From positions 11,629 through 57,018 of the forward strand of contig CAZKNL010000002.1 in assembly GCA_964554155.1 (NCBI GenBank): 45,390 nucleotides of DNA, in the 5' to 3' direction. The translations under genes and the position numbers were made by a program. The stretch comes from an uncultured Pseudomonadales bacterium. Lineage in GTDB: Bacteria > Patescibacteriota > Microgenomatia > UBA1400 > PJMF01. Under the pieces are notes generated by a model. The model was not told the DNA's origin, searched no databases, and saw nothing but the letters and a program-made list of their open reading frames with translations. This document shows, in pieces, positions 17,665-42,609 of this stretch (position 1 is its first letter; every line of letters begins with the position of its first letter).

Positions 17665-17666
17665 AT

Positions 17667-18218: not shown

Positions 18219-18239
18219 TTTTAGGCTCCACTACTCTAG

Positions 18240-23069: not shown

Positions 23070-23076
23070 CTCACTC

Positions 23077-24312: not shown

Positions 24313-24317
24313 AAGAT

Positions 24318-26024
24318 TTATTTTTTATGATTATGAGCTAAAAACCACTGGCCTACGACTAAAATTATATACAGTCCAGTTAAGAGACTGACTGTGTTGC
24401 CAATTACCCTTGACCAAGTCCATTGGGTGAAACGAGTTACGATGTTGTACATTCCAGGAGAGAGTTGATAGGCGATCCTACCAGAAATTTCTTTATTCTG
24501 AAGATAGTTGACCATTGTAGATCTTGCAGAATTTTTATTGGTAATGAGTGTTTCCCAGCCAGGAAAAAACATGGTTGGTTCAACAACTGTGACTGGAGTT
24601 ACTGCAACCACTGTGTATTGACGGACCGAACCATTCCATTGTTGGACTGAAGTGCTGCCTTCCCCTTCTAAAATACGTGCCGTTGGTTGCCAGTTGGCAA
24701 ATTCTTGATAGGTGAAATTTTTTGGTAGGTCCTCGTTGCTAGTAGTTGTACTCTGCTCAAAAAGTTCATACTCAACTCTTTCTTTATGCAGATACCCAAC
24801 TGGAGTTAAACGCCAAACAATTATCAGTTGAATGCCTAAAGCAAGAGTAATGGCAATTCTTTGCCAACGAATGTTTTGTTGAACTACCCATGCCACCAAA
24901 GCAGAGCTGGTTAATGTTGCGAACAGTCCTAACCGCCATGGAAATTGAATGAATCTGGCTAGGGGAATAAGTTGCCAAATTGACGATGTCCCGCTGAGTT
25001 GAAAGATCAACAAACCAATGGTCACCACTAACATCACCCAAAAAAATTGATTGAATGTTTTGCTCATTTGTTTTTGTTGAAGTCCAACTCCTGCAAAAGC
25101 CCACCCAATTGCACAGAACAAAGCTACCCACTCAGCAAAACCAAAGGCAAAAGATAATGAATCAACTGCTCCAAGATAGGAAAAACCGAACTGGAGTGGA
25201 CTAGCCAGTAGTTGCTGAAGTGTTGGAAAATGTTGCAGATATTGTTGAGCGAGTGAACTTCCGCTAATAATAATTGCAGATTGTTCGGCCAGTGCAGGCA
25301 GCCAGAACCATAAACTTAACCCTATACCAAGGGCGGTAGCTCCTCCGACAGAGAGTAGCTGTTCTTTTTTCTGCCACAGTCGCCAAATGCTATATATCAG
25401 TATTAATGGTGTCCCAAATAAAACAGTCACGTTGTGCGAGAGAAAAAAACAGCCAACTAGAACTCCACCAATTACAGTCATGGGTGAAAGCAGACCTGTT
25501 TTTTGATTCCGTAACTTTTCTACCCAGAGCAACCACCAACTCAAACACGCTAATCCTAAAACTTCACCAATGCTGCCACGATAGATGACTGTTTGGACAA
25601 GGTAAGGTGAAACAATAATGCTCGTTACTGCAGCAATTTTTGCCCAGGTACCCATTCCTAATTGGGTCAACCACATCCAAAAACCGACTACAAGTGCAAC
25701 TACCGCTGCTGACATAATGAACTTAAACGTGAACTCATACGAAATTTTGATCAGTGAGAAAGGAACTGATAAAATATTTGGCAGTGGATAGTTATAGTTA
25801 AACACAGGATAGCCATAGCGATGAAAAAGATTTGGAGCAAAACGAGGTGGCCACTGCCCTTCTTTTAAAGCAATTTTATAGTTAGCGAAGCGAGCGAGGT
25901 GATTTTCTCCATCATGAGTAATCGGCACACCTTGATGAATATAAACGCGCAAAACACTCAGTGAGAGTACAGTACAGAACAAAATTAAGCAAAATAATGA
26001 AAAAGCTGAACGGAGTTTAATCAT
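24318..26024 (-). CDS. Polytopic membrane protein, PTPS-related/COG5617-like (putative GT-C-type enzyme)
   Basis: THDGENHLARFANYKIALKEGQWPPRF ... GYPVFNYNYPLP near the N-terminus, then IQFPWRL mid-protein, then a C-terminal beta-domain with FFPGWETL. It is a paralog of 44060..45390. Confidence 0.5.
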   Translation of the reverse strand: MIKLRSAFSLFCLILFCTVLSLSVLRVYIHQGVPITHDGENHLARFANYKIALKEGQWPPRFAPNLFHRYGYPVFNYNYPLPNILSVPFSLIKISYEFTFKFIMSAAVVALVVGFWMWLTQLGMGTWAKIAAVTSIIVSPYLVQTVIYRGSIGEVLGLACLSWWLLWVEKLRNQKTGLLSPMTVIGGVLVGCFFLSHNVTVLFGTPLILIYSIWRLWQKKEQLLSVGGATALGIGLSLWFWLPALAEQSAIIISGSSLAQQYLQHFPTLQQLLASPLQFGFSYLGAVDSLSFAFGFAEWVALFCAIGWAFAGVGLQQKQMSKTFNQFFWVMLVVTIGLLIFQLSGTSSIWQLIPLARFIQFPWRLGLFATLTSSALVAWVVQQNIRWQRIAITLALGIQLIIVWRLTPVGYLHKERVEYELFEQSTTTSNEDLPKNFTYQEFANWQPTARILEGEGSTSVQQWNGSVRQYTVVAVTPVTVVEPTMFFPGWETLITNKNSARSTMVNYLQNKEISGRIAYQLSPGMYNIVTRFTQWTWSRVIGNTVSLLTGLYIILVVGQWFLAHNHKK

Positions 26025-27130
26025 GTTTGGTGAAGAACTTGTTTATAGACTGCTGCAGTTTGGGCAGCGACTTTGGTCCAACTAAATGTTTGACTCCAAA
26101 TATAGGCAGCTTTGAGTACTCCTTGTCGATGGGGTTTTGACCAATTCAAGATTTTCTGAACTGCTTCGCCAAACGACTCTGCCTGTGGTTCTACCAAAAC
26201 TGCATGATCTCCACTGACCTCGATGATTGATGAGTTATGTGCAGCAATCACGGGAGTTCTTGCTTGCATCGCCTCCAAAATAGGCAAACCGAATCCTTCA
26301 TATAAAGATGGTTGAACGTAGGCAATCGCTCCTGAATACAGTGCTGATAATGCTTGAGTATCGTTGACATCAATATCAATTACAAAGTGAACACGCTTCG
26401 CAACATCACTTAGTGCTACTTGGGTTTCAATCCACTTCCATTCCGGAATATCTTGGGGATAAAAGTTTTTACCGACACAAATAAGATGGATATTGTCTGG
26501 AATAAACTTCAACGTTTTAATCAGTTGGGAAATGTTCTTATTATAGTTAATGTCACCGACATACAATATGTACTGTCTCGGTAGTTTTTTAGTTCGGAGA
26601 ACTTCTTTTTGAGTATCCTCTGTTTGTGTAGAAATTAAAGTTGATGCTGCTAAATGAATAACATGAACTTTATCTGTGTTTAGTTTAAGTAATTGAAGAA
26701 TATCTTCTTTAGCAGAGTTTGAGTCAGTAATGACTGCCTCGACACTTTTTAAAGCTAATGCTTGTTTGTAAAAACGGAGCAAACCCTTCTTACCAGGTTT
26801 GTAATAGTGAGGGAACTTTAAAGGAATAAGATCATGGATTGTGACTACCGTTTTAAATTTTCGAAAAAGTGGTAAAGTGTCAAAAAAAAGATCAAAAAAG
26901 GGATAGTGAACAACTGTTGAGTTCTGGTCTAGAGGTGGTGATGATCTTAAGATATTTTGCAGATCTTTTTTACTCTCAATAGGAAGAACTCTTAACTCAT
27001 CTTGCTGCTCCAACGCTTCTTTGAGCAGCCGTGTATAGGTGCCAATACCACGAATTTGACTACCAGTTTGGAGTGGTGAAGTATCAAGTAAAACAGTAAT
27101 CTTGCCTTGTTTAGTATTAAGATTTTGCAT
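26021..27130 (-). CDS. GT4-family (GT-B) glycosyltransferase
   Basis: YVGDINYNKN ... VQPSLYEGFGLPILEAMQARTPVIAAHNSSIIEVSGD. I prefer the ATG at 27130 to the GTG at 27139. Confidence 0.85.
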   Translation of the reverse strand: MQNLNTKQGKITVLLDTSPLQTGSQIRGIGTYTRLLKEALEQQDELRVLPIESKKDLQNILRSSPPLDQNSTVVHYPFFDLFFDTLPLFRKFKTVVTIHDLIPLKFPHYYKPGKKGLLRFYKQALALKSVEAVITDSNSAKEDILQLLKLNTDKVHVIHLAASTLISTQTEDTQKEVLRTKKLPRQYILYVGDINYNKNISQLIKTLKFIPDNIHLICVGKNFYPQDIPEWKWIETQVALSDVAKRVHFVIDIDVNDTQALSALYSGAIAYVQPSLYEGFGLPILEAMQARTPVIAAHNSSIIEVSGDHAVLVEPQAESFGEAVQKILNWSKPHRQGVLKAAYIWSQTFSWTKVAAQTAAVYKQVLHQT

Positions 27131-27890
27131 AACGTTCACAAAACTTCAGATATATGACAGGATAATGAAGTCCACTACAGACTGCAAATAAAAAACCGGC
27201 TGTTCCGTCAACTAATCCTTTGTGTCGAATGTATAACGAAAAAAAGAGAGTCAATGGTTCCCATATAAAGTATTGAAGAGCCATTCCTAAACTAGGTTGC
27301 CTGTGTTGCTGGTATAAATGTTCAGCTGAGAAACTGGTGTAGGTATTAAACTTTCGCAGATAATCAGCAAAGGTCGGATTACTGTAGTGCAGTAAATGAC
27401 CATCAGCCCAATCGAGCTCACCATCAACAACCATTTGCTCATGCACATCTTTTTGAGGTAAATGTGATTTACCCTTTTGATACAGGCGAATTACCGGGTC
27501 AGGATACTGACCTCCTTTTGTCAGAAATCGGCCAAAAAATAAATTTTTTCTTTTAATCCACCATCCTGCTGGAAGCACTTCTTTCCGTAAAATGCGTTGA
27601 TGTGTTTCGATAATAAATTGACGGAGCTTGTCATCAACTACTTCATCAGCATCCAGTTGCAGGACTAAGTCGCCCTGTGCTTTATCCATAGCTATTTGCT
27701 TATTAATATGAAAGTTGGCTTTATTGGTTGTGGAGACAACTGCAGTTGTAAACTGTTTTGCTAGTTTGACTGTGTCATCAGTTGATTCACCATCAACCAC
27801 AATAATCTGATCAGCCCAATCTTTTACGGCAGCTAAACAGCGTCTGATATTTTTGGCTTCATTGTGGGTAGCAAGAACAACAGAAATCAT
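27117..27890 (-). CDS. GT2 glycosyltransferase, WaaE/KdtX-like small subgroup (paralog A)
   Basis: ISVVLATHNEAKNIRRCLAAVKDWADQIIVVDGESTDDTVKLA ... LQLDADE ... KGGQYPDPVIRLY ... HKGLVDGTAGF. I prefer the ATG at 27890 to the TTG at 27908. Confidence 0.8.
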   Translation of the reverse strand: MISVVLATHNEAKNIRRCLAAVKDWADQIIVVDGESTDDTVKLAKQFTTAVVSTTNKANFHINKQIAMDKAQGDLVLQLDADEVVDDKLRQFIIETHQRILRKEVLPAGWWIKRKNLFFGRFLTKGGQYPDPVIRLYQKGKSHLPQKDVHEQMVVDGELDWADGHLLHYSNPTFADYLRKFNTYTSFSAEHLYQQHRQPSLGMALQYFIWEPLTLFFSLYIRHKGLVDGTAGFLFAVCSGLHYPVIYLKFCERYAKS

Positions 27891-27894
27891 AAAG

Positions 27895-29547
27895 TTAGGG
27901 TTGATCAATCAACCAGTTATTAAAAGTTGGGTTCCACTCAATTAAATGTTTATCTTCAGAGACTCGATCTTCACGGTGGGCGATAAAACGATATTGACCT
28001 ACTCGATACCCATACTTTAGTCCTATTCTATCAGGCAAATGATGGTTGATTGTTTGGAAGAATGTTGTTGGTGGCATTTTCAGGTACCAAGCAACTGAAA
28101 CATATAAAAAGCCGTTTGGGTCGACAATTGCAGCTTGGTCTTGATTGTTATTCGTCGTTTTTTCCACACTTTGCAGAGCTGGAAGTAGACCAGCTTGCAA
28201 AATCTCTGCGCTTTGTTTTGGGTAACGAGTAAAGTAACTAAAGTAGTAGCGATGAATCTCTAGATACAAGCCAATACTTAATAACAAAATAAAGAAAATT
28301 TGGGCAGTAGTTCTCTGAGTAGTTCTGAGTGAAACTTCCTGCCAAATATACTGAATGCCTAAACCACTAAACAGACAAATCAAAAAGAAGAAGAAAAGAC
28401 TCCGAGTGGCATGAGGAGCATCAACGGTAATCACTGCCGGGATGAGTGAAGTAACGAACAAGAATAAAATTGCTTGATATTGCTTGCGCGTTTGTTCTAA
28501 GGATCGTTTGGAGAATGCTTTCCAAATAGATCTCAAAATGCCAACGATGAATAATAGGTAGGTGGCTAAAAATAAGTGACCATAACCTGGAAGGGTATGC
28601 CATGGGTGTTGCCCTCCGCGCCAGACTAAAAATTGTGGTGAGAGTGACTGAACATATCGAGTAGCAACTTCTCTGCCAAAAAAAACAAACCTGTTCCCAA
28701 TCAGTTTTTGAGTTACTCCTGTGAATGAATTGTGGTAGTTCACAGATTGCTGCCAAAGTGTTTCATCAGTAAAGATGGTGATACCACTTTTCTGATGGTT
28801 GATTGAAGAAAATAAAACAATACCCGACAGGAAAAGCAACGATAAACTCACAACTGGAAAACTATATCTTCGCCAGTTTTTAATACCGCGTTGGAGGATC
28901 ATTGCCATAACTAAAAATGGTAGAAGTAACAATGGAGTGTTATAGCTAAAAATAGCGAGAACTAACAACAAAAGACTACCAATATCAAGCAACAGATATT
29001 GACGAAAAGAAAGTCTGGCTTTCTTCCCTGCATAGAAGAGAAGGAGCAGAGCACCGACAAAAAACCCCAGACCCACATTTGCCTCCCAAGCCATCCGCGA
29101 ATAAAAAAAGAAGATGGGTTGAAAAGCTATGGTTGCGGCGACCCATAAAGAAGCTCCTTTTCCTAATCCCAAAACCTTCCGTGCGCATAAAAATCCTAGA
29201 AGCACGAGGACTATTCCGGCAATTGCAGAAGGGAGCCGGACGACAAAGTCGTTGTAGCCAAATAGCTTAAAAAATCCAACCAGCAAAAAAGGATATCCAG
29301 GCAATTTATAGTCTCCAAATGACTCGAGTGTAATTGGCCAGGTCCTTCCCCACTCATCTTTGCCTGTCTGATTCAATAGAAAAGCGTTGTATGCCAATGC
29401 AGCTTCATCACGGTTTAAAGTTGTTGGCAATGTTGCCAAGTGATGAAGTCGCAGTATGGTAGCTATAAATATAACTAGAATTAGAACTATTCCAGTAAAG
29501 ATTGAGCGAGAAAACGGAGTGCGTTGAGTTAAGTGAATTTTTTTCAT
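27895..29547 (-). CDS. GT-C-fold membrane glycosyltransferase, ArnT/PMT-like (array member 1)
   Basis: LNRDEAALAYNAF ... FGDYKLPGYPF ... VVRLPSAIAG ... DAPHATRSL, with a soluble C-terminal domain. There is an ATGA overlap with the upstream paralog. Confidence 0.75.
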   Translation of the reverse strand: MKKIHLTQRTPFSRSIFTGIVLILVIFIATILRLHHLATLPTTLNRDEAALAYNAFLLNQTGKDEWGRTWPITLESFGDYKLPGYPFLLVGFFKLFGYNDFVVRLPSAIAGIVLVLLGFLCARKVLGLGKGASLWVAATIAFQPIFFFYSRMAWEANVGLGFFVGALLLLFYAGKKARLSFRQYLLLDIGSLLLLVLAIFSYNTPLLLLPFLVMAMILQRGIKNWRRYSFPVVSLSLLFLSGIVLFSSINHQKSGITIFTDETLWQQSVNYHNSFTGVTQKLIGNRFVFFGREVATRYVQSLSPQFLVWRGGQHPWHTLPGYGHLFLATYLLFIVGILRSIWKAFSKRSLEQTRKQYQAILFLFVTSLIPAVITVDAPHATRSLFFFFLICLFSGLGIQYIWQEVSLRTTQRTTAQIFFILLLSIGLYLEIHRYYFSYFTRYPKQSAEILQAGLLPALQSVEKTTNNNQDQAAIVDPNGFLYVSVAWYLKMPPTTFFQTINHHLPDRIGLKYGYRVGQYRFIAHREDRVSEDKHLIEWNPTFNNWLIDQP

Positions 29548-31331
29548 CGAGTAAAAGTAGCTATAGCAAGTTTATTACTCCAAACCTCATCATGAATATA
29601 CTGAATGTTACATCTATAACTATTGGGTAAGGGGCAGCTTTTCGCAAAGAGTGTGTTTTCGCCAACTACTAGAGTACAAGAAGATCCTTCTGGTGGAGAG
29701 CAATACTGCTCAATTGATTTTGTTTCCCCAGCTACGATAAATGACTGCCCTTCTGTGAATTTTTTTGCCAACTTGGACTGATCAACTCCACCGAACTCAA
29801 TCCTTGCAAAGTTCTTGTCGATCCGATCAGTCTGAAATTTGTAGTTTTCAGACGGCCAGCCCTGAAATTCTTTGGCAGAGTATGGTCCATACGCCATTAA
29901 CCACAGATAAAAGCGGTCATCAAAAGGCTGAATTACGATTGTTTGGCCATCTTTTGCCAGTTGAGTGATTTTTTGTGCCAGGGGTTTATAGCCACTTTGC
30001 CAGTCATTGGCGGAAAGTTTTGGGTAAACCTGAGTGTAGAACCACCAAAAGTGTAGAAAAGAGCCAGCGTAGAGCAGGACAATGATCAGTTGGAGCTTAT
30101 ATCTCGATAGCCATATCCACCACCAGGTTGTTCCAAAACCAATAATCATGCTTAAGGGAATCAGTGCATTTAATGAACGGAGTGCATGTGGAGTATTTTC
30201 AGGTACAGAAGCTGGTAGTAACGCAATGAACCACCAACCAATCAAAAAAAGTCCGAGTGATGGATGTCTTTTTAGCAAAACAATCAGACCAACTATAAAT
30301 GCTGGAACAAAAGCCAGTAAAAATAATCCAAACTGGCCAGTTCCGTGACGGAGGTTTGGATCTCCATTCACAAATAAAAATGAGCCGGATAAGTTATCAC
30401 TATAGTTCTTTGCTAACTCTCTAAACATCAACCAATACCGATGATAAAAGACTCGGTCGATGAATGTATTCCCAGCTAACTGACGATAGACATTACTTTG
30501 TATGGCTAGTTTTTCATTATTTAAGACTGAGTCAGTCCCTAGCCGGAAACGGTCAGCGTCTTTGGCCAGAGGTGAGCGTAAGAGCGGAATCAACACAATC
30601 ACAAATACTAAGGAACCTGCTAACGAATGGATTAAAGCTTGCCAGGGAAACTGGAGTTTTTTCCATGAAAATAGTAGCTGTTGTCTGCAAATAGCCAACC
30701 CAGATACACCTAAATAAACAAATGGCCACACAAATCTGACCGAAAAATAGGTGTAGGTTGCCAGCGAGCCAATCAAACCAGCCAATAAAAAGAATCTGAG
30801 CTCCTTTTTGTACAGGCCCCAAGCAGTTGCGAGCATCGAAGCTCCAAATAAGGCTTGAGCAAGATGCCCTTCAAAAGCTGTTCGTGAGAACATAACTGAC
30901 CAAGGAGTGATTGCTACCACAACCATTGTCAGGAGTTGTGCTAACTCCAAAAATTTTTGGCGGTAGGGTGTTTTTGTTCCAATCTGGAGTAACACTCTTA
31001 TTAATGCGCCAGCAATTATCACCGTGAACACTCCAGCCAAGGCAGATGGCAGTCTTAATCCAAATTCGCTCAAGCCGAAGACTTTACAACTGACTGCAGC
31101 TGCCCAGATATAAACTGGCAACTTGTAGTCTCCGTATGAAGGATAGATCAGTTGATACCAGGGTAGATTGTGCATATCTCTACCTGTTGCCAAAACAGAC
31201 TTGATATCTACCAACATGGCTGCTTCATCCCAATAGACTGAAACAGGAAATCTACCTAATTGCCAGATACGGAGTACTCCAGCCAAAAAAACAACCAAAA
31301 TAAAAAAGATCCAAAACCAACGACGTGGCAT
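29544..31331 (-). CDS. GT-C-fold membrane glycosyltransferase, ArnT/PMT-like (array member 2)
   Basis: VYWDEAAMLVD ... YGDYKLPVYIW ... GLRLPSALAG ... VNGDPNLRHGTGQFG ... NTPHALRSL ... NDWQSGYK, with a C-terminal domain of about 150 aa containing five Cys. Confidence 0.75.
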   Translation of the reverse strand: MPRRWFWIFFILVVFLAGVLRIWQLGRFPVSVYWDEAAMLVDIKSVLATGRDMHNLPWYQLIYPSYGDYKLPVYIWAAAVSCKVFGLSEFGLRLPSALAGVFTVIIAGALIRVLLQIGTKTPYRQKFLELAQLLTMVVVAITPWSVMFSRTAFEGHLAQALFGASMLATAWGLYKKELRFFLLAGLIGSLATYTYFSVRFVWPFVYLGVSGLAICRQQLLFSWKKLQFPWQALIHSLAGSLVFVIVLIPLLRSPLAKDADRFRLGTDSVLNNEKLAIQSNVYRQLAGNTFIDRVFYHRYWLMFRELAKNYSDNLSGSFLFVNGDPNLRHGTGQFGLFLLAFVPAFIVGLIVLLKRHPSLGLFLIGWWFIALLPASVPENTPHALRSLNALIPLSMIIGFGTTWWWIWLSRYKLQLIIVLLYAGSFLHFWWFYTQVYPKLSANDWQSGYKPLAQKITQLAKDGQTIVIQPFDDRFYLWLMAYGPYSAKEFQGWPSENYKFQTDRIDKNFARIEFGGVDQSKLAKKFTEGQSFIVAGETKSIEQYCSPPEGSSCTLVVGENTLFAKSCPLPNSYRCNIQYIHDEVWSNKLAIATFTR

Positions 31332-31357
31332 ACAGATGATGATATCATCATCTGTAT
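31330..31357. promoter_or_regulatory. Perfect 28-nt palindrome filling the divergent intergenic gap; contains two overlapping, oppositely oriented extended -10-like elements (TGATATCAT)
   Basis: ATACAGATGATGAT|ATCATCATCTGTAT is its own reverse complement, which I checked base by base. It abuts ATG 31331 on the minus strand and ATG 31358 on the plus strand. TGATATCAT lies 7 nt from the minus ATG and 9 nt from the plus ATG. Confidence 0.5.
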
Positions 31358-32713
31358 ATGAAAAAGTTGACGACTTCAGTTACTCCTTTGAAGTGGAAAT
31401 TGCTTATTGTTTTGTTCATTTTTTCGCGGATCTTAATTTGGTTCACTCCTCCACCAGAATTTACTGAGATTATTTATAGTTACATGCCCTATGCTCATTT
31501 GTGGGCCAGTGGCACACGTCCTTATCTTGATCAATGGTTCGAGTATCCGCCAGCCACTATTCCATTGTTTTATGTCCCTCATATGATTGACATGACTACT
31601 CGCTATTGGCCGATTCATTTGAATTATTCAAACGCATATCGAGGAATACTTTTAATTATTGATGCACTTTTATTTACGGGGATTATTTTGACATTGAAGA
31701 AAAGGAAAGTTACTGGTCGTTTGTTTTGGGTGGCAGTTGGTATGTATCTGTTTTTAACAACTAAAGCTCATCACTTTATTTATGACACTATGGACCTAAG
31801 CTTTGCAGCAGCAATGGTATTCGGTGTAATTGGGCCATTACTACTGACTGGGTTCAAAGGAAAGTTTAGTCAGTGGTTTGGTTTTTTCTTAGCCACCGCA
31901 TTGAAGTATGTAAATGCACCACTAGCTGTTATCTATGCTGTGATTGATCGACGGCAAATCATCCGATCGGCAATAGCAGGAGCCTTAGCACTTGCAGTTG
32001 TTTGGTTGGTCCCAGTGGTTCTCTATCGTTCTTCTCTGCAAGTCAGCCTGGTCTATCAACAGTTACGAGGTATTCAAATCGATACAGCGACCTCGATCAT
32101 TTTGCGAACTATAAACGTTTTTACCAAGAGTGAAAAAGTCATTGAAGTCTACAAAAACTATGAAATTGCAGGACCTCTGACAAACCAGGCCAAAAGAATT
32201 CTTTCTTTTGCTTTCCCAGCTGCAATTGGAGTGTTTCTTTTGGGTTCAACTATTTTTATTCTACGTTCTCCAGTGGAAACAACAGACAACCGTTTTGTAT
32301 TGGCAAGTCACTTCACTCTCGGATACATATTAGTTTTCATGATCTTCGCTAAAGTGTTATCGACACCATTTCTGTTATGGCACTTACCATTTTTAGCAAT
32401 TTATCCATTTACTAGTGTAAAGCGTCAAGCACAGTATGCAGTCTTATCATTTTTAGTTATTTTTAGTTCAATGACCAAAGTTTCAAATATGGAAATTCTT
32501 ATTTTTCCTTTGCCATTAATTATCGGTTGGGTGCGAACACTCAGTTTCATGGCAATGTTAGTGATTTGGTTACGGGATACTAGTAATTTACAGGGAAAAT
32601 TAATTGCCGAAGTTAATTACGAACCTCAGCCAGAACCCACACTACCTGCCCACGGAGGTCCTTCACCTCGCCGATCTTCTCGACAAAAGAAAATTGTTTC
32701 TGCAGCTGTTTAA
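31358..32713 (+). CDS. Polytopic membrane protein, GT87/DUF2029-like (putative polyprenyl-P-sugar dependent glycosyltransferase)
   Basis: 451 aa with about 11 TM helices. The loop motif RPYLDQWFEYPPATIPLFYVP resembles the Y/F-x-YPP motif of GT87 proteins. The last 33 codons or so overlap the convergent gene and encode a low-complexity P/S/R tail. Confidence 0.45.
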   Translation: MKKLTTSVTPLKWKLLIVLFIFSRILIWFTPPPEFTEIIYSYMPYAHLWASGTRPYLDQWFEYPPATIPLFYVPHMIDMTTRYWPIHLNYSNAYRGILLIIDALLFTGIILTLKKRKVTGRLFWVAVGMYLFLTTKAHHFIYDTMDLSFAAAMVFGVIGPLLLTGFKGKFSQWFGFFLATALKYVNAPLAVIYAVIDRRQIIRSAIAGALALAVVWLVPVVLYRSSLQVSLVYQQLRGIQIDTATSIILRTINVFTKSEKVIEVYKNYEIAGPLTNQAKRILSFAFPAAIGVFLLGSTIFILRSPVETTDNRFVLASHFTLGYILVFMIFAKVLSTPFLLWHLPFLAIYPFTSVKRQAQYAVLSFLVIFSSMTKVSNMEILIFPLPLIIGWVRTLSFMAMLVIWLRDTSNLQGKLIAEVNYEPQPEPTLPAHGGPSPRRSSRQKKIVSAAV

Positions 32714-34358
32714 ATTGATCAGCTGAACAGACAACTAACCCAGGAGCAGCTTCATTGACTGAGTTAATAAAATGCAGGTTTTGGAAAGTCAGAAACTCCC
32801 CTTGATCTTTTTTTGCAATGTTCTCTTCAGCCTGAACTTGTCGTGGATCTGTTTGACTAAAGAACCAGTAATACATTGCTGGTCGACCATATTCACGCGT
32901 AATCAAAATAGGCTGATCGGGGTGAGTAACTTTGTATTGATTCACCCGAGTGACCATCTGTTTATACCCGTACTGCCATTCTGAAGCTGCAAGGATTGGA
33001 TAAATTTTGGTGTAGTAGCGCCAGTACATCCACCACTGCACACTGCTCACAAAGAGTAAGGTGATAACTCCCACCCAAAGAACATATTTTGGTTTTTGTT
33101 TCTTCAACCACAAAAGTGAAACAGTTAAGCCTATTGTTATGGTAAAGAGAAAGATTGGTGCTGTCGGTAATATTCTAAGTGCATGAGGTGCAGCTTTGGT
33201 AACTGCTGCCGGAAAAATCCCAATCATCAACCACCACAGCAAGAACAGTATATACATTCGAAGTTTTTTATTTTTAAATGTCTGAGCAGCAAGAAAAATA
33301 ATTCCAATACTTAACCAAGTTGCATCGGTAAAGTAAAGAATACCAGTAAATCCAGTTGAGTGACGAAGATTTTGATCACCATGAATAAATAAAAAATCGA
33401 CTGAAAAATGGGTCAAAAAATTACTGAGGGTTTGTGAGGCAAGATAGATATAGCGATGACCAAAAATTTTAGCACCAATACTGTTCCCAGCCAGTTCACG
33501 AAATTGATTACTCTGAACAACGTATTGGCCGTCAGCATATAAGCTTGTTTCCGCAAAGCGTTGCTGAGTAGTTGGATTACCGACACTCAGAAGGAGTGGA
33601 AAAACCAAAACGGCAAACAGAAAGATTACCACCACTGCTTGTTGTATGGCCAGTTTTCTTTTTAAATGCTCAAAAAGAGCTGGTGAAAACCAAATCATAT
33701 TCAAACTGATAAACACTGCAGGAGCTATGATTCGTGTGGCATGATAGGTATACATTGATAGGACAGCCAGAACAGCAGTTGCGAACATTTTAATTAACCG
33801 AGAAAACCCTTGAGTCGGTGACTGTTCCACCCACAGACCACAGACCACTGACCACAATAATAAACAACTTGCTAAATTAACTTCCCAACCTCCCCGTGAG
33901 AACTGGATCAACCATGGAGAAGTAGCAGCTATAATCATTCCAAGTAAAAACACCCAACCAAAAAAAGTTTTTTTCTGATTAAGCCAAATAGCTTGAGCCA
34001 AAAATTGCGCGAGTAATCCAACGCCAATGACAATCAAAACTCCGGCGAGTGCGCTTGGTAATCTGACTGCTGTTTCGTTGAGACCGAAAAGGGCAATAAA
34101 AGGAACAACTGCATAAAAGTATCCACTTGGTTTGTAGTCTCCAAAAGAGCTAAAAGCGACCACTGGCAATGGCTGACCATGATGATCTTTGCCAGTTTTG
34201 ACAATAGAGTATGCATCATATCCAAGAGCTGCTTCTTCCCAGTATAGAGAAGGCGGTAAATTGTCTAGTTGCCAAATTCGGACGAAGCAAGCGAATAAGA
34301 CGACTCCGATGCATAAAAATAAAAAATAACGATCAAGTAAATTTACAAAAAACTTCAT
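32613..34358 (-). CDS. GT-C-fold membrane glycosyltransferase, ArnT/PMT-like (array member 3)
   Basis: LYWEEAALGYD ... FGDYKPSGYFY ... AVRLPSALAG ... IHGDQNLRHSTGFTG ... AAPHALRIL ... SEWQYGYK. There is an ATGA overlap with the upstream fusion gene. Confidence 0.75.
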   Translation of the reverse strand: MKFFVNLLDRYFLFLCIGVVLFACFVRIWQLDNLPPSLYWEEAALGYDAYSIVKTGKDHHGQPLPVVAFSSFGDYKPSGYFYAVVPFIALFGLNETAVRLPSALAGVLIVIGVGLLAQFLAQAIWLNQKKTFFGWVFLLGMIIAATSPWLIQFSRGGWEVNLASCLLLWSVVCGLWVEQSPTQGFSRLIKMFATAVLAVLSMYTYHATRIIAPAVFISLNMIWFSPALFEHLKRKLAIQQAVVVIFLFAVLVFPLLLSVGNPTTQQRFAETSLYADGQYVVQSNQFRELAGNSIGAKIFGHRYIYLASQTLSNFLTHFSVDFLFIHGDQNLRHSTGFTGILYFTDATWLSIGIIFLAAQTFKNKKLRMYILFLLWWLMIGIFPAAVTKAAPHALRILPTAPIFLFTITIGLTVSLLWLKKQKPKYVLWVGVITLLFVSSVQWWMYWRYYTKIYPILAASEWQYGYKQMVTRVNQYKVTHPDQPILITREYGRPAMYYWFFSQTDPRQVQAEENIAKKDQGEFLTFQNLHFINSVNEAAPGLVVCSADQFKQLQKQFSFVEKIGEVKDLRGQVVWVLAEVRN

Positions 34359-36880
34359 GGTACCTTCACGACTACAAATCGAATACTGCCATTACTTCCA
34401 TATATCAGATGCTCAGCCAGTTTTGGTTCAAGCTGAGCAGGTGTAGCAATAATTAAAGTATTATGACGGGTAATTAAGTCTCCTACCGTAATTTTATTTG
34501 TGAATTCATACTTAATTAAAGAACCCCCGTGATACTCGTACGGCGATGTGCCTCTACCGAATAATGCGTAAATATATGGCTGTTCATAAGAAGAAGTAAA
34601 AAGTATCTTTTCGACTGTTGGTTCATAGTGTTTGGAGTACTCAACAGCTTCTAAGTATCCATCTTTAAACTCATCTGCGGAAGTTTTGGCAAAAGTACCG
34701 TAGTAATGATTGAGGTAAGATACCAAGAAAAATAAATGAAGCAGCAAAGTGGTACCCAGTACAGCCGATCCAATCAAGCGGCCCTTTAATTTTTCGGCAA
34801 GAAACTGCCAGCCTAATACCGCTAAAAATAAAAACCCCGGCAAAGCCAACAACATTCGATTACTATGAGGGACATCAACACCAATAGCAGCCGGAATTGT
34901 GCCGATAATCACCCACAAAATTCCACAGCCTACTGCAGTCAGAAAACCACTCCTTCTTTTTCTGATCAAGTTTTGAACACCAGCAATTCCGGCAACCACA
35001 ACCAAAAACAACTCAGTCGGATACAAAATACCCCATTGACCATCTCCGTGACGTAAGGTCGGTGTCTGACCTTGAATTAAGTAACTGAGTCGAAAATGAA
35101 CAGTAAAGTGTTGAGTGAACTTTTGGAGTAACTGTGGGAGAGCTAAACCTTCTCGGAAAATAGAAGCTTGTTGAAATCGGTCAGCTCCTGCTCCCCAAAT
35201 AGAGTCGATTGCCAACGGTAGTAAATAGATAATAAAAACCAAACACCATAGTAAAGTAGCTCTCCATTTGGTTTTTAGTTTTGATCTGAATAACCACCCC
35301 AAAGTTAGAAGCAAAAGCGGTGTCACAATCTTACTGCTGTGATAGGTATACAGTGATGCTGCTAAAAGCATTGAACTCATCAACCAAATCAATTTTGTTA
35401 CAAAGTGAGGTAGCTCTGTACGAAGTTTCTGTGTTTTCTGACTCAACACAAAAACTAATCCAGCCACACCCCAAATCAGAAAATTCAATGCCATTCCACT
35501 CTCAAACCCAACACGTGAGAAATGAAGATGCCAGGCAGAAGCAGTTATCAATACACCACTTAATAATGCTGCATTTGTGCTGGTCAAAACCGGAAATGTC
35601 GATTCTTTTTTGATCAGCATCCATTCTTCCCACAGCAACTTCACCACTACCATCCATCCAATCACTGCCAATACACCACTCAGCGCAAAAGGCAAACGAA
35701 CTGCCCACAGATTCAAACCAAATAAACGGACGGAAACACCAGTTACATAAATAGCTAAGGGTGCCTTGTAATCCCCAAACGATTGAAAAGAAATTGGCAG
35801 TTTTTTTAACCATTCATCTCTGCCTGTAGTAGCAACGGCAAAACCATTGTAGCCAATAGCTGCTTCATCCCAAGTCATTCCATGTGGGACTTGTCCAAGC
35901 TGATAAAAACGAAGCACTATTGCCACTAAAAGAATCAGTCCAGCAAAAAGAATCTGTAGTTGCAATGGCGCCAAGATTGGTGCTTTTGTCCACCAGTATG
36001 GTTGCCAGAATAGATAGTCTAGTTTTTGTTTCCAAGTTGCGTTTTTTTTGATGAATGTATTGGCATGTTGCCAACTCATATTGGTCATCTTTTTTCGACC
36101 AAACTCAGACGTATTTGTTGACTCATGGTCATGATCAACTTCTGCTTTTTGATCAAAAAGAACTTTCCATCCATTTTTTTTAGCACGAAAAGAGAGATCA
36201 ACATCTTCCCAGTAGGCTGGATAATAGTCAGCACTGAAACCTTCAAGAGCCAACCACTTCTCTCGATCAAACATACTGCTGCCACCACTTGCCCAGCCAG
36301 TTTCACCGGTTTCAAAGTGATCAGCTCGACGATGCACAAACATCCCACGTTTAAACTCCAGAACATTCTTGCCACCGAAGACTTCCTTTTTAGTCAGGGG
36401 ATCGTGTTCATGTTCGAGACAACTAACGGCAAAAATAGATGGGTTTGCGAAGTGAGTAGTTAATTGATGAATGGTATCGGGATGTGGGGACACATCAGAG
36501 TTAATTAAAAAAACTAATGAATGGGTTGCTTGTTGAACAGCTTGATTACAGCTTTCCGCAAAACGTTTATTTTGTTGATTCCTGAGTAAAATCACCGAAC
36601 CATTTTTTTGGCCGTATTTCCAGCTTCCATAAAGAATCTCTCCATCAAAAGAGAACTTTAACGAGTCCTTTTTTTTGTGTGTAAAACTAGTTTGTATAGA
36701 CGGGAATTTTTTCTGTAACCATTCCCATGAGTTGTCACTACTCTGATCATCAATCACGATTAACTCATCTTCGTTCCGCATCGCATTGAGTACCGCAGGC
36801 AAATGTTCTTGGAGAAGTGCCCGACCGTTATACGAAGGAACAATCACTGAGACAGTTGGATGATAACTTTCTGTTGACAT
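34355..36880 (-). CDS. Fusion protein: N-terminal GT2 (GT-A) domain and C-terminal ArnT/PMT-like GT-C domain (array member 4)
   Basis: GT2 part: VSVIVPSYNGRALL ... VIDDQSSDNS ... INSDVSP ... AYWEDVDLSFRAKKNGW. GT-C part: MTWDEAAIGYNGF ... FGDYKAPLAIY ... AVRLPFALSG ... TLRHGDGQWG ... DVPHSNRML. It is a single uninterrupted 841-codon ORF. Confidence 0.8.
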   Translation of the reverse strand: MSTESYHPTVSVIVPSYNGRALLQEHLPAVLNAMRNEDELIVIDDQSSDNSWEWLQKKFPSIQTSFTHKKKDSLKFSFDGEILYGSWKYGQKNGSVILLRNQQNKRFAESCNQAVQQATHSLVFLINSDVSPHPDTIHQLTTHFANPSIFAVSCLEHEHDPLTKKEVFGGKNVLEFKRGMFVHRRADHFETGETGWASGGSSMFDREKWLALEGFSADYYPAYWEDVDLSFRAKKNGWKVLFDQKAEVDHDHESTNTSEFGRKKMTNMSWQHANTFIKKNATWKQKLDYLFWQPYWWTKAPILAPLQLQILFAGLILLVAIVLRFYQLGQVPHGMTWDEAAIGYNGFAVATTGRDEWLKKLPISFQSFGDYKAPLAIYVTGVSVRLFGLNLWAVRLPFALSGVLAVIGWMVVVKLLWEEWMLIKKESTFPVLTSTNAALLSGVLITASAWHLHFSRVGFESGMALNFLIWGVAGLVFVLSQKTQKLRTELPHFVTKLIWLMSSMLLAASLYTYHSSKIVTPLLLLTLGWLFRSKLKTKWRATLLWCLVFIIYLLPLAIDSIWGAGADRFQQASIFREGLALPQLLQKFTQHFTVHFRLSYLIQGQTPTLRHGDGQWGILYPTELFLVVVAGIAGVQNLIRKRRSGFLTAVGCGILWVIIGTIPAAIGVDVPHSNRMLLALPGFLFLAVLGWQFLAEKLKGRLIGSAVLGTTLLLHLFFLVSYLNHYYGTFAKTSADEFKDGYLEAVEYSKHYEPTVEKILFTSSYEQPYIYALFGRGTSPYEYHGGSLIKYEFTNKITVGDLITRHNTLIIATPAQLEPKLAEHLIYGSNGSIRFVVVKVP

Positions 36881-36882
36881 AA

Positions 36883-37974
36883 CTACCTGCCTATCATCTC
36901 ATATAAAGTTTGGCAGAACCGAGCTTCAGAGAAGTCTTGGACTTGTTGACGAGCCATCCGTTGCCAATCTGGCCAAAAGTTTGGGTACTGCAGAACATGA
37001 GTGGTGATATGACAACACTCTTCGATGCTCTGCCACTGAAAATCCTTAAAGTCTTCGCCAACTACCTCAAGCTGACCACCCTTGCCGACCACAATCGGAA
37101 TACAGCCACTGGCCATTGCTTCAGCTGTACTAATGCCAAAGTGTTCAACTTGTTCTGGATGTTTTTCTTGATCAACTTGATATCCAGCAGCGTGCCAGTA
37201 AATTATTGCCTTGCTATATAACTGCAAAAGTTCTTTTCGGGATAACTGGTGATAAAACTGGACAGGTAAACCTTTAGCAAACTGTTTGACTTCCTTTAGG
37301 TATGACTCATCTTCTACTCCACCGACTAAAACTAACTTCCAACCTTTCAATAACTCTGGCTGCTGATCCTTCAGTTGTGCAAAAGCTTGAACCAGAATAT
37401 CTTGTCGTTTGGTATGAAGTTGGCGAAAGAAACGACCGACACTTAAAATGATTTTTTCTTTATGATCTGTTGGTTGAAAACAGGCTTGATCAATAGCTGG
37501 ATAATGAACGTACTGAATTTTAGTTCTCCATGATTTTTCAACAATTTGTTTGGTGAAAAGAGAGTTAGTGTTTCGAATAGACCAATTGTTTAGTTTTAAA
37601 CGCTCAGAGAGAGTGGCCAGTTTGTTGGTAAAAGGAATTTGGATGTGGAGAATATTTTTTTTCGCCCCACTGAAGAACATACTGCCATCAGTGACTGCAA
37701 TACACAGATCAAACTTTCGTGTCCACAAGAACTTTTTGAGTGCAGAGCTCCCAGGATAAAGTGGACCTGGGATAAAGGTAATGTCTTTCAATGAGCGCTG
37801 CAAAAAATGCTCATAGTCTTTAACATATCCAACAATTTCAATTGTTTTACAGCTAGCTGGCAGAACTACCTGAACACGATGTTCTTTGGCTAAAGTTCGC
37901 GCCACATCAAAAAAATACTTTTCACCACCGCCAAAATGTTTAGGCACATACGGTGAATATAAACAAATTTTCAT
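36883..37974 (-). CDS. GT4-family (GT-B) glycosyltransferase
   Basis: MKICLYSPY ... SVGRFFRQLHTKRQD ... EHFGISTAEAMASGCIPIVVGKGGQLEVVGE. The ATG at 37974 forms an ATGA overlap with the upstream stop. The longer ORF starts at GTG 38007. Confidence 0.8.
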   Translation of the reverse strand: MKICLYSPYVPKHFGGGEKYFFDVARTLAKEHRVQVVLPASCKTIEIVGYVKDYEHFLQRSLKDITFIPGPLYPGSSALKKFLWTRKFDLCIAVTDGSMFFSGAKKNILHIQIPFTNKLATLSERLKLNNWSIRNTNSLFTKQIVEKSWRTKIQYVHYPAIDQACFQPTDHKEKIILSVGRFFRQLHTKRQDILVQAFAQLKDQQPELLKGWKLVLVGGVEDESYLKEVKQFAKGLPVQFYHQLSRKELLQLYSKAIIYWHAAGYQVDQEKHPEQVEHFGISTAEAMASGCIPIVVGKGGQLEVVGEDFKDFQWQSIEECCHITTHVLQYPNFWPDWQRMARQQVQDFSEARFCQTLYEMIGR

Positions 37975-38807
37975 CGATCCTTTGATAGTTGAGCGTCTTT
38001 TTTCCACATCTTCATAAACTCAAGTTCTTTGGTGTAGTATTTCTCTTCTAAACTTGGGTGCTGTTGCAGTTCCCAAAGTTGAACATACACAAGATAACGA
38101 TTCATTGCTTGGATGCCTGCTTCAATGATCCCTTCTATCCCATCTTTTCGACCAGACCAGAGAAATGCGCGACGAATAAACTCCATGACTGTTTTACGAA
38201 ATAATACCCAAACAGTTACTGGTGGTGTATTTGCTTCAAACAGTAATCGCGCTTCAACTGGAGTCCAAGCTGCTGTTTTATACAAACCATCGATCGTATT
38301 CCGGTGAGTCAGATGAAATAAGCTACTATGTAAGCGCGTCACTGCACCATTGAAAACTGGACTTTCATGAATATCGCCCTTCCAACCAGCTAATGCTTTT
38401 CTGCGGAAGATCCGGATTACGTATTCTTTTTCCCACCCTCCATGAGTGAAGAACTTGCCATACATCATATTTTCGCGGTGAATTTCTAGCGCGTTTGTTG
38501 ATGTTGTCTCAATCTGCACCAAAATTTCTTTGGCGAGGCGAGGCGTAGCGCGTTCGTCGGCATCAATGTAAAACAGCCAATCTGTGTTGCAATGACGCAG
38601 TGCCTCTGTTCGCCTTTCAGCGAAAGAAGACTGCCGACTCTGAATCACTTTTGCTCCCAATCGCTCTGCCAGTCCAACAGTTTGATCCCGTGAGTTAGTA
38701 TCAACAACTATAATTTCTTGACACCACCGTAATGTTTCAATGCAGTTGGCCAGCATTGCTTCTTCGTTTTTGGTCAAGATAATAGCGGTAATGTTTGGTA
38801 CAGACAT
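37971..38807 (-). CDS. GT2 glycosyltransferase, WaaE/KdtX-like small subgroup (paralog B)
   Basis: ITAIILTKNEEAMLANCIETLRWCQEIIVVDTNSRDQTVGLAERLGAKV ... YIDADE ... HGGWEKEYVIRIF ... GRKDGIEGI. I prefer the ATG at 38807 to the TTG at 38816. Confidence 0.8.
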   Translation of the reverse strand: MSVPNITAIILTKNEEAMLANCIETLRWCQEIIVVDTNSRDQTVGLAERLGAKVIQSRQSSFAERRTEALRHCNTDWLFYIDADERATPRLAKEILVQIETTSTNALEIHRENMMYGKFFTHGGWEKEYVIRIFRRKALAGWKGDIHESPVFNGAVTRLHSSLFHLTHRNTIDGLYKTAAWTPVEARLLFEANTPPVTVWVLFRKTVMEFIRRAFLWSGRKDGIEGIIEAGIQAMNRYLVYVQLWELQQHPSLEEKYYTKELEFMKMWKKDAQLSKDR

Positions 38808-38818
38808 AATAAGCAAAG

Positions 38819-39787
38819 TTAATACACAGCTTGTTTTCCCATACGCCCAACTGCCCAGTCAAGAGCTGCTCGACGTAAAACAGCTTGAGACTGAAAAACT
38901 TGCAGTGTTGCCAACTTGAGAATTCTTAAGTAAAACCAGAAAAGTCTGAGAACTTGTGTCAGACTGCTTTTTTTCTGTCCACCTAAAAAGTGCATATGGG
39001 CATACTTCCAAAAGAAAAACAGCCGATTACGAGTTTGATAGTATTGATGCAGCACAGAACCAGCTCCTCCAGATGAGCCGGCATTTTTATGCCAAACGAC
39101 AGCTTCTGGAACAAAGTAGAGTTGATATCCAGCTTGGATGATTCTCAGACTCCAATCGGCATCTTCGAGGTATAAAAAGTAACGTGGATCAAGTGTGCCA
39201 ACTCTCTCTATGACTGTGCGAGGAAGTAATATACAACACCCCGTTGCAAACTCAGTTTGGTCAGTTTGGTCAAACTGTCCTCGGTCAACTTCATCCACCC
39301 CGCGATGGAAAGCATCTAAGTTTGCCCAGTCGATACTGCCACCAGCGAACCATAAGACCTTGCCTCGCTGTTCAGGTTTGTAACTTTTTTTGTGAAACTC
39401 ATACCCCGGAGAAAAGTAAATCTTAGGAACTGCTATACCTAACTTTGGTTGTGCTTGGGCAACTGCGATCAACTTCTCTAAAAAATCTGGTTTAACTATT
39501 GTGTCACTATTCAATAAGACAACGTAATCGGGATCTGTTTCACGAACTGCGATGGAAATTCCTAAGTTATTTCCACTTGTAAATCCTAAGTTCGCATCAC
39601 TGCGAATAATTTGGGTGTTTCGAGGTAAGTCTTTTTCTGGAATCTGTAGTATTTCTTTTGAACCATTATCAACGACATACGTATAAGTATGCATTCCAGT
39701 ATGTTCAATTTTTGCTAGAGAGGATAAACACTCTTTTGTTTCGGCTTCGGTGTTGAAATGAACAACCACAATCGCAACAGTGATCAT
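38819..39787 (-). CDS. GT2 glycosyltransferase (WbbL/rhamnosyltransferase-like subgroup)
   Basis: VAIVVVHFNTEAETKECLSSL ... VVDNGS ... LLNSDTIV ... LYLEDADWSLRIIQAGY. Confidence 0.8.
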   Translation of the reverse strand: MITVAIVVVHFNTEAETKECLSSLAKIEHTGMHTYTYVVDNGSKEILQIPEKDLPRNTQIIRSDANLGFTSGNNLGISIAVRETDPDYVVLLNSDTIVKPDFLEKLIAVAQAQPKLGIAVPKIYFSPGYEFHKKSYKPEQRGKVLWFAGGSIDWANLDAFHRGVDEVDRGQFDQTDQTEFATGCCILLPRTVIERVGTLDPRYFLYLEDADWSLRIIQAGYQLYFVPEAVVWHKNAGSSGGAGSVLHQYYQTRNRLFFFWKYAHMHFLGGQKKSSLTQVLRLFWFYLRILKLATLQVFQSQAVLRRAALDWAVGRMGKQAVY

Positions 39788-39831
39788 AGTAGGAGTATTT
39801 TACCTCTTTTTGACTATCTCGGGGAAGCTAA

Positions 39832-40749: not shown

Positions 40750-40758
40750 CTTCTTTCC

Positions 40759-40767
40759 ATTCTAACA
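40759..40767 (-). promoter_or_regulatory. Extended -10-like element TGTTAGAAT, 9 nt upstream of ATG 40749
   Basis: The reverse complement of ATTCTAACA. Confidence 0.4.
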
Positions 40768-40773
40768 CTGCTC

Positions 40774-40782
40774 TGTTATCCT
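40774..40782 (+). promoter_or_regulatory. Extended -10-like element TGTTATCCT, 7 nt upstream of ATG 40790
   Basis: The sequence reads ctcTGTTATCCTtgcgcagATG with no Shine-Dalgarno. Confidence 0.4.
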
Positions 40783-40789
40783 TGCGCAG

Positions 40790-42574: not shown

Positions 42575-42609
42575 ACAAAATCTCCCATCAAAACTTCTGA
42601 TGAAAAGTT

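Follow-up and report, generated by a model that had tools for sequence, protein, structure and literature searches.

Four clustered genes on the minus strand of a 45,390-nt stretch of DNA (contig CAZKNL010000002.1; hereafter, the window) encode related membrane proteins that we term m1 to m4. Each of the four has its own ortholog in seven other genomes; thus, the array is an ancient conserved operon and not a local expansion. Judged from structural models, the proteins have the GT-C glycosyltransferase (GT) fold and are of the class that contains ArnT, PMT enzymes and oligosaccharyltransferases (OSTs). Their gene context suggests, with fair probability, that four non-redundant GT-C enzymes here extend, outside the membrane and with polyprenyl-phosphate sugars, a lipid-linked glycan flipped by Wzx.

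Paralogy, motifs and orthology of the array

A reading of the window from its sequence alone had proposed an array of four ArnT-like paralogs, and all four open reading frames (ORFs) are found at the positions that it gave (Table 1). The claim that they align across the membrane domain is borne out by MAFFT and by an all-against-all blastp comparison of window ORFs. In the latter, m2 and m3 share 33% identity (E 1e-67), m3 and m4 share 27% (E 1e-43 to 1e-46), and m1 and m2 share 28% (E 1e-33). E values are 1e-33 for m2 and m4, 1e-30 for m1 and m3, and 1e-23 for m1 and m4, the weakest pair. The alignments cover ~450-540 residues. This likeness is far above chance, and the four are true paralogs. 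As had also been proposed, only a C-terminal part of m4 belongs to the set. This part is ~540 aa long, and residues 1-~290 form a GT2 domain. Stop and start codons overlap by 4 nt between m2 and m1 (29544-29547) and between m4 and m3 (34355-34358), and the same overlaps recur in other genomes (both pairs at locus L004, m2/m1 at locus L009).

The C-terminal domains, which are 104-155 aa long, had been described as differing between members. This holds for m1, whose domain has no likeness to the others that hhalign can recognise, but not for m2, m3 and m4, whose domains are mutually homologous (hhalign probability 82-94%).

All motifs listed previously occupy the same MAFFT columns in the four proteins and are therefore positionally equivalent. 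Three further conserved outer-loop motifs are apparent, namely TG[KR]D, [FY]SRxx[WF]E and YxY[HF]xx[RK]. The loop-1 [D/E]E pair lies 12 residues past transmembrane (TM) helix 1, and all 37 sequences aligned, distant relatives among them, have its second E. SRxx[W/F]E, whose E is invariant, sits in outer loop 2. The RH block belongs to the long outer loop that joins TM7 to TM8; its variants are group-specific, and its H is the only residue of the block that is invariant in the core family. PHxxR resides in outer loop 5, 2 residues ahead of TM10, and its R is kept even in relatives of the type encoded at 40790-42574. A core alignment of 20 sequences that spans the four paralog classes contains 21 invariant residues, including (m1 numbering) R33, E48, D64, D79, K81, R104, R151, E155, H317, H379 and R382.

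Orthology was investigated by using eight further loci from seven other genomes, two loci being from one organism. In a neighbour-joining tree (37 sequences, 534 columns, 200 bootstraps), the proteins form four orthologous groups, each with 100% bootstrap support and with one member per genome. Identity is 44-46% inside groups versus 22-28% between groups, and m1 to m4 of the window are monophyletic in 0 of 200 bootstraps. The suggestion that the four are each other's closest relatives is thus incorrect, because each is nearer to its orthologs in the seven other genomes.

The same results make a recent tandem expansion with redundant or decaying copies very improbable. This explanation would draw on the adjacency of the genes on one strand and on the mid-protein block of m1, which looks aberrant by eye and was previously called degenerate. 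However, m1 retains all 21 core-family invariants, and the block is instead a group-specific variant, GGxHPWH[ST] (GGQHPWH in m1 itself), that is kept in seven of seven m1 orthologs. Conserved variants of this kind exist in every group (Table 1), and look like the signature of four old, separately constrained, non-redundant functions.

Gene order is also conserved. The recurrent arrangement is Wzx, GT2, GT2, GT2, GT4, GT2 (fused to m4 or not), m4, m3, m2, m1, GT2, GT4, an 8-TM protein, a PIG-V-like GT-C enzyme and a GalE-like epimerase, and it is found whole or in part at loci L001, L002, L004, L007, L008 and L009. A fifth paralog group is present at L002 and L007. What lies between m3 and m2 varies: an opposite-strand multi-TM gene in the window, L004 and L008, a fifth paralog in L002, a 40790-type gene in L007, a peroxiredoxin gene in L009 and nothing in L001.

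L001 (CAZYRN010000001.1) and L002 (CAZFRD010000001.1) derive from metagenome-assembled genomes titled "uncultured Pseudomonadales bacterium," and one homolog is tagged Vitreimonas sp. Gene content and synteny with homologs labelled as Patescibacteria suggest that the Pseudomonadales and Vitreimonas labels are wrong.

The proteins apparently belong to a very large, uncharacterised GT-C family centred on Patescibacteria. With m3 as query, more than 2,358 homologs are detected at E<=1e-5, and the best 120 share 40-64% identity. Those with names are from Patescibacteria and are called "ArnT-like glycosyltransferase" (JGI) or "glycosyltransferase family 39 protein" (NCBI). A family profile searched against 1.84 billion cluster representatives matches 20,492 of them at E<=1e-3, 12,287 at E<=1e-10 and at least 5,487 at E<=1e-30. 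The motif set is therefore not private to the array, as had been thought, but recurs family-wide. It is kept in all 27 sampled homologs of 40-64% identity, and in a regular-expression census of 383 homologs the individual motifs are found in 91-99% (loop-1 acids in 363, GD.K in 378 and PH..R in 349). The family has neither its own Pfam entry nor a solved structure, and literature searches for it in Patescibacteria or the candidate phyla radiation (CPR) found no paper. The enzyme class itself is expected, and databases already tag the family loosely as "ArnT-like / GT39."

Fold, topology and proposed active site

An AlphaFold model of m3, calculated from a 30-sequence alignment, has high confidence (pLDDT 92.5, pTM 0.92). 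It has 11 TM helices; the first outer loop is 66 residues long, a long loop joins TM7 to TM8, and the C-terminal domain is alpha/beta. When it is compared with the PDB by using Foldseek, the top matches are ArnT structures (5ezm, E 6.5e-9; 5f15, E 2.6e-8), followed by AglB, STT3, Pmt4, ALG12/9, AftA, AftD and AftB, with Pmt1/2 and ALG3 also present. Full-length m4 (pLDDT 88.4) is modelled as a GT-A domain (residues 1-250), a helical linker and a GT-C body. The body again best matches ArnT (5f15, E 1.7e-8), and the GT-A domain resembles ppGalNAc-transferases (E 1e-9), Chs1 and RmlT. Despite these matches, m3 and m4 share only 12-13% identity with ArnT, at a TM-score of ~0.45-0.5.

The short loops of the four proteins contain 23-28% K and R on the predicted inner side versus 6-12% on the outer side, where the few basic residues are the conserved motif arginines. 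In m4, a GT2 domain of the type that uses nucleotide sugars precedes TM1, and this domain must be cytoplasmic. Therefore, all motifs are predicted to face outward, and the placement of the motifs on the catalytic outer face that had been proposed earlier agrees with both the loop charges and the m3 model.

Sequence comparisons link the family to ArnT only remotely. PDB searches with m3 alone, with a profile of m3 orthologs, or with the relative encoded at 6088-7614 as a bridge produced no match, and hhalign found no alignment between the family and E. coli ArnT. The 20-sequence core-family profile reaches ArnT at E 0.12. A 37-sequence profile that includes distant relatives matches 5ezm_A at E 3.3e-4, which is its sole significant PDB sequence match. 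The HMMER alignment pairs family positions 75-243 with 5ezm chain residues 88-252 (~165 residues), where the chain index is the ArnT number plus 3. This register is fixed, because three known ArnT residues fall on K, D and K as expected, at chain positions 88, 161 and 206. Thus, "ArnT-like" is an appropriate description of the fold and of the remote profile match, but not of membership in ArnT family GT83, and m1 to m4 appear from these comparisons to be remote homologs of ArnT and not members of GT83.

In this alignment, the family motif RLPxAxxG corresponds to RLAVALSG of ArnT, the invariant K of GDYK to ArnT K85 and the E of SRxx[WF]E to ArnT D158. ArnT K203 aligns with the invariant Y of the YxYHxx[RK] loop, and the family has a basic residue four positions later that is absent from m1. 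K85 of ArnT contacts the carrier phosphate; D158, located in external loop 2 (EL2), is salt-bridged to K203 and makes contact with sugar or acceptor (PMC7801869). We propose on this basis that the K of GDYK may likewise contact the carrier phosphate.

Other residues can be related to known enzymes by their position but not by alignment. Roles have been described for the loop-1 acids D55/E56 of ArnT and D77/E78 of Pmt1, and in OSTs the carrier phosphate is bound by an EL5 arginine that TMTCs also retain (PMC7801869). We propose that the loop-1 [D/E]E pair is equivalent to the former, and that the R of PHxxR might be the counterpart of the latter. The RH block shares the TM7-TM8 loop with ArnT R270, again by position only. 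The PH..R and LRH.TG blocks had previously been put forward as candidate phosphate- or carrier-binding elements. Such a role seems reasonable for basic motif residues, and fits both the match of the GDYK K to ArnT K85 and the placement of the PHxxR arginine, which is like that of the EL5 arginine.

Proposed function and competing explanations

The conserved block that surrounds the array carries a Wzx/MOP flippase and seven cytoplasmic GT2/GT4 domains, which are parts for the assembly of a lipid-linked oligosaccharide. The general scheme of a lipid-linked donor, a flippase and a GT-C enzyme has been described (PMC11127046). Under the reading that we favor, the cytoplasmic GT2/GT4 enzymes, including the GT2 fused to m4, would build the oligosaccharide, Wzx would flip it, and each of the four GT-C enzymes would then add a specific residue or linkage outside. 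Every enzyme would have its N-terminus in the cytoplasm, 11 TM helices and, outside, a small C-terminal domain, and loop motifs would form an active site on the outer face. The loop-1 acidic pair may serve in catalysis or in positioning the acceptor, the phosphate of the polyprenyl-phosphate sugar donor could be held by GDYK (through its K) and PHxxR (through its R), and the E of SRxx[W/F]E may contact the sugar or acceptor. The four enzymes stem from ancient duplication, and their genes are retained in fixed order in an operon of ~20 kb found across Patescibacteria. We infer these catalytic roles, as well as the donor type, the acceptor and the order of action, from the comparisons above. It had been suggested earlier that one donor chemistry might be applied to different acceptors or linkages. 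Because the catalytic motifs carry group-specific substitutions, the donors of m1 to m4 could differ as well as the acceptors.

The fusion of GT2 and GT-C domains in m4 is not peculiar to the window. Proteins of this type recur in ~60 protein clusters, with lengths of 790-890 aa and identities down to 34%. At L002, L007 and L009, the GT2 is a separate gene immediately upstream of the m4 ortholog, and at L006 it is also separate, with a gene on the opposite strand intervening before the m4 ortholog. The recurrent fusion and the unfused GT2 genes that adjoin m4 orthologs thus argue for functional coupling.

A potential source of lipid-linked donor is encoded elsewhere in the window. The protein at 15635-16567 matches GtrB over its full length (5ekp, E 1.6e-66) and also ArnC (E 2.6e-42), and it is a candidate synthase of the donor sugar. 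Since this gene lies beside genes for an aminotransferase, an acetyltransferase and an SDR protein, at least one lipid-phosphate amino-sugar donor can presumably be made, and the module (15635-19232) probably produces a polyprenyl-phosphate N-acetyl-amino-sugar.

The idea that other GTs near the array are donor synthases of the Dpm1/GtrB type is not supported. The three small GT2s (27117-27908, 37971-38816 and 39832-40749) have no TM helices, and the GT2 domain of m4 best matches ppGalNAc-transferases. The small GT2s are mutually paralogous (25-27% identity), and each has its own orthologs elsewhere. Among PDB entries, the protein at 27117-27908 best resembles GmaR and SunS, which glycosylate proteins or peptides, and likeness to DPMS is confined to the generic N-terminal 50 residues.

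Several observations weigh against the proposal that four enzymes elongate a flipped glycan from polyprenyl-phosphate donors. A distance of 11 kb separates the GtrB-like synthase from the array, and in other genomes no such gene lies 10 kb or less from the block; the soluble small GT2s beside the array are like GmaR and SunS and not like Dpm1 or GtrB. No GtrA, SMR or ArnEF-type flippase for a monophosphate donor was found in the window by Pfam searches and a check of gaps, and the only flippase candidates there are two Wzx/MOP proteins and one EamA protein. The second-best structural matches are OST-type enzymes, which use pyrophosphate-linked donors, so that the donor could be of either type. 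Loop-1 acids, RH block and PHxxR are placed by position only. Finally, the quartet is not universal, because at L006 only m4 and m3 are adjacent.

One different explanation is that the proteins are PMT-type protein O-glycosyltransferases that act on Ser/Thr-rich surface or secreted proteins, perhaps as hetero-oligomers (m4-m3 and m2-m1) like Pmt1-Pmt2. PMTs share the 11 TM helices and the acidic pair in loop 1, as do TMTC1-4; GT39 enzymes (Pmt1/2/4 and actinobacterial Pmt) and TMTCs are also expected to use polyprenyl-phosphate donors, and offer a precedent for hetero-oligomers of co-encoded paralogs. The 4-nt overlaps pair exactly the genes in question, Pmt4 and Pmt1/2 are among the Foldseek matches, some homologs carry the NCBI family 39 name, and a PgfS-like GT2 is encoded in the window. 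Weak profile matches also favor this reading: in the 20-sequence core alignment, nine members match PMT_2 (PF13231) and two match PMT (PF02366), at E of ~1e-3. However, of the four proteins only m1 exceeds the PMT_2 cut-off (35.1 versus 26.1 bits); m2 scores 13.6 bits at a relaxed threshold, and m2, m3 and the GT-C part of m4 have no Pfam match at E<=0.01. By these criteria, the four are not clearly members of GT39. In addition, ArnT and OST outrank PMTs in Foldseek, the MIR or TPR domains of the known enzymes are absent, no gene for a Ser/Thr-rich target is seen in the block, and the conserved genes that share the operon, for Wzx and seven cytoplasmic GTs, are those of lipid-linked glycan assembly. 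Protein O-glycosylation is therefore possible but unlikely.

It is less likely still that one or more of the four act en bloc on pyrophosphate-linked oligosaccharides, as a polymerase, ligase or oligosaccharyltransferase. This explanation could account for the rank of AglB and STT3 among the fold matches, and for a block that includes Wzx but no recognisable Wzy or ligase; moreover, the outer face has several invariant acids that could bind metal, and an LCP (LytR-CpsA-Psr) gene adjoins the block in L009. However, no WWDxG-type motif is found in m1 to m4, the large C-terminal domain of OSTs is lacking, and the sequence link is to ArnT, an enzyme that uses a monophosphate donor. The absent polymerase could instead be one of the multi-TM proteins encoded at 24318-26024 and 44060-45340.

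That the four are true ArnT enzymes, which modify lipid A or a similar lipid with aminoarabinose, can be discounted almost entirely. Both the top structural match and the sole sequence match in the PDB are to ArnT, the JGI name of homologs is "ArnT-like," and the window encodes an ArnB-like aminotransferase and an ArnC-like GT2. ArnT also resembles m1 to m4 in its inside N-terminus, outer-loop active site and outer soluble C-terminal domain. However, the identity and TM-scores given above are low, hhalign yields no alignment, ArnT (GT83; 5EZM/5F15) has 13 TM helices versus 11 in the m3 model, and it is a single enzyme of Gram-negative hosts that bear lipid A. Four conserved, distinct paralogs would be unexpected for a single lipid A modification. 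The window contains no lipid A genes and, of an arn operon, only the ArnB-like DegT protein and the ArnC/GtrB-like GT2, 11-12 kb off, with no ArnA, ArnD, formyltransferase, deformylase or ArnE/F. The named homologs are Patescibacterial, and to our knowledge, Patescibacteria do not synthesize lipid A.

Glycan elongation by four outer-face enzymes can be compared with several known systems. In arrangement, the best analogy is to the mycobacterial arabinosyltransferases EmbC-EmbA-EmbB and AftA-D, co-located outer-face GT-C paralogs that use a lipid-phosphate donor and place sugars at different sites in a single polymer. Foldseek matches AftA, AftB and AftD only weakly to m3. Emb proteins, however, belong to a different sequence family and are ~1,100 aa in length with carbohydrate-binding modules, versus 550-600 aa with a C-terminal domain of 105-155 aa here. 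The lumenal ALG3/9/12/6/8/10 enzymes of eukaryotes offer a parallel in which cytoplasmic GT-A/GT-B enzymes, a MOP-type flip and several GT-C steps on the far side, with polyprenyl-phosphate sugars as donors, would follow one another as proposed here. This parallel comes from gene content alone: ALG12, ALG9 and ALG3 are matched by Foldseek at E 3.4e-4 to 0.027, but there is no sequence similarity, and ArnT is a better structural match. Three-component systems (GtrA/GtrB/Gtr*, CsbB/GtcA/YfhO, GacI-L and GT136) likewise combine a GtrB-type synthase and a GT-C enzyme in one cluster, and modification on the outer face is expected in both cases. They differ in that the window has no GtrA/SMR flippase and its synthase gene lies apart from the array, and in having one accessory, serotype-specific GT-C enzyme, whereas four core conserved ones are present here.

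A broader proposal, which we put forward tentatively, is that the quartet, the GT2 fusion and the Wzx/GT2/GT4 genes make up the core machinery by which Patescibacteria would produce a major glycopolymer or glycolipid of their envelope, mostly on the outer face of the membrane. Such a two-compartment pathway might be called "ALG-like" or "arabinan-like," since cytoplasmic GTs, a flip and then outer GT-C steps are proposed here as for N-glycan precursors and mycobacterial arabinan, and m4 would physically join the final cytoplasmic reaction with the first one outside. If this is true, the polymer could be the main surface determinant in host-attached organisms with genomes of ~1 Mb. Patescibacteria genomes are tiny, yet ~40 kb of the window is devoted to glycan genes, including at least seven GT-C-type enzymes, and the four GT-C genes are the operon core that is conserved across lineages at ~45% identity. 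The product of the family would tell what the mostly uncultured Patescibacteria display on their surface. In addition, the group variants within otherwise invariant active-site motifs provide a natural series on donor and acceptor specificity of GT-C enzymes.

Gene neighborhood and other features of the window

The window has ~40% GC and is packed with ORFs. Over 45 kb, no gap between ORFs of at least 150 aa exceeds 60 nt, and many ORFs overlap. Coordinates of the array, its motifs and its neighbors are collected in Table 1.

Table 1. Positions of the array, its conserved motifs and neighboring genes in the window
Feature	Coordinates	Strand	Description
m1	27895..29547	-	550-aa GT-C paralog, orthologous group OG_m1; PMT_2 E 1.9e-8; motifs NRDEAA, FGDYKLP, YSRxAWE, FSYNTP, GGQHPWH, PHATR; group variants NRDEAA, YSRxAxEA, TYNTP, HPWH, APHATRSL
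m2	29544..31331	-	595-aa GT-C paralog, OG_m2; Cys-rich C-terminal extension; group variants YWDE, FSRTxFEGH, YTYFSVRFVW, NLRHGT, PHALRSLN
m3	32613..34358	-	581-aa GT-C paralog, OG_m3; alpha/beta C-terminal domain at residues 460-581; motifs WEEAA (aa 40-44), FGDYK (72-76), VRLPSA (98-103), GDQNLRHSTG (327-336), PHALR (391-395), WQYGY (461-465); group variants YWEE, FSRGGWEVN, YxYHATR, NPRHS, PHALRILP
m4, whole	34355..36880	-	841 aa, GT2 domain and GT-C part; group variants TWDEAAIGYNG, FSRxGFESG, YTYHSxK, TLRHGDG, PHSNR
m4, GT-C part	34355..35968	-	aa 305-841, OG_m4
m4, GT2/GT-A part	36011..36880	-	aa 1-290, N-terminal, predicted cytoplasmic; PF00535 E 6.5e-18
Loop-1 acidic pair	m1 29398-29412; m2 31218-31232; m3 34227..34241; m4 35858-35872	-	WEEAA in m3
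GDYK motif	m1 29299-29319; m2 31116-31136; m3 34125..34145; m4 35759-35779	-	FGDYKPS in m3
SRxx[W/F]E motif	m1 29083-29103; m2 30870-30890; m3 33882..33902; m4 35501-35521	-	FSRGGWE in m3
RH block	m1 28585-28617; m2 30336-30365; m3 33351..33380; m4 35039-35065	-	GDQNLRHSTG in m3
PHxxR motif	m1 28402-28416; m2 30177-30191; m3 33174..33188; m4 34856-34870	-	PHALR in m3
Multi-TM ORF	31358..32713	+	451 aa; 3' end overlaps m3 3' end by 101 nt; splits the array
GT4	36883-38007		upstream half of conserved block (36883..44100)
GT2	37971-38816	-	upstream half
GT2	38819-39787		upstream half
GT2	39832-40749	-	upstream half
Distant GT-C relative	40790-42574	+	family profile E 8.6e-32
Wzx/MOP flippase	42610-44100		upstream half
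GT2	27117-27908	-	downstream half of conserved block (22152..27908)
GT4	26021-27139	-	downstream half
8-TM protein without assignment	24318-26024	-	downstream half
PIG-V-like GT-C	23077-24312	-	downstream half
GalE-like epimerase	22152-23069	-	downstream half
More distant GT-C relative	6088..7614	-	PMT_2 E 7.5e-10; keeps WLDEAA; family profile E 1.4e-13
GtrB/ArnC/PgfS-type polyprenyl-phosphate glycosyltransferase	15635..16567	-	310 aa; two C-terminal TM helices
DegT/PseC/ArnB-like aminotransferase	16564-17664	-	arn-like donor module (15635-19232)
GNAT acetyltransferase	17667-18218	-	arn-like donor module
4,6-dehydratase-like SDR	18240-19232	-	arn-like donor module

The opposite-strand multi-TM ORF that splits the array has no Pfam or NCBIfam match. 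Its orthologs, with 49-70% identity, adjoin the m3 ortholog at L004, L008 and L006, and at L006 the gene is found directly after m3. By eye, the stretch WFEYPPATIPLF of its product presumably recalls GT-C enzymes of the PimE/GT87 type.

The distant GT-C relative at 40790-42574 keeps HDE, SGxD, FSRxSFD and the loop-5 arginine, and is without GDYK, the RH block and PH. Its orthologs are present at L004, L007 and L008.

The proteins encoded at 24318-26024 and 44060-45340 (minus strand) are paralogs with 7-8 TM helices (26% identity, E 2e-19) and have syntenic orthologs in other genomes. The first follows the GT4 gene downstream of m1, and the second lies just before Wzx. Both are candidates for a polymerase, a ligase or further GT-C enzymes. 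Relaxed Pfam scans of the membrane proteins at 24318, 44060, 31358 and 19288 yielded nothing usable. The last of these (19288-21237, plus strand) has 649 aa and eight predicted TM helices, adjoins the amino-sugar module, and has a weak C-terminal hint of an Ig-like domain (CARDB E 0.018).

The LCP ligase gene of L009 (positions 1-180; GCA_034680565.1) is at the edge of the conserved block, and hints that the product may be attached to the cell wall.

In the window, glycan genes begin at 3760. Its left edge encodes an EamA/DMT transporter (29-997), a hexapeptide acyltransferase (985-1584) and RuvB/RuvA/RuvC (1602-3773). A putative second route of glycan export (9915-15079) is made up of a Wzm/Wzt-like ABC-2 permease and ATPase (9915-11481), a methyltransferase (11522-12439) and a soluble multi-domain protein of 878 aa with a central GT2 domain (12443-15079). 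In addition, a second Wzx-like flippase is located at 8593-9900.

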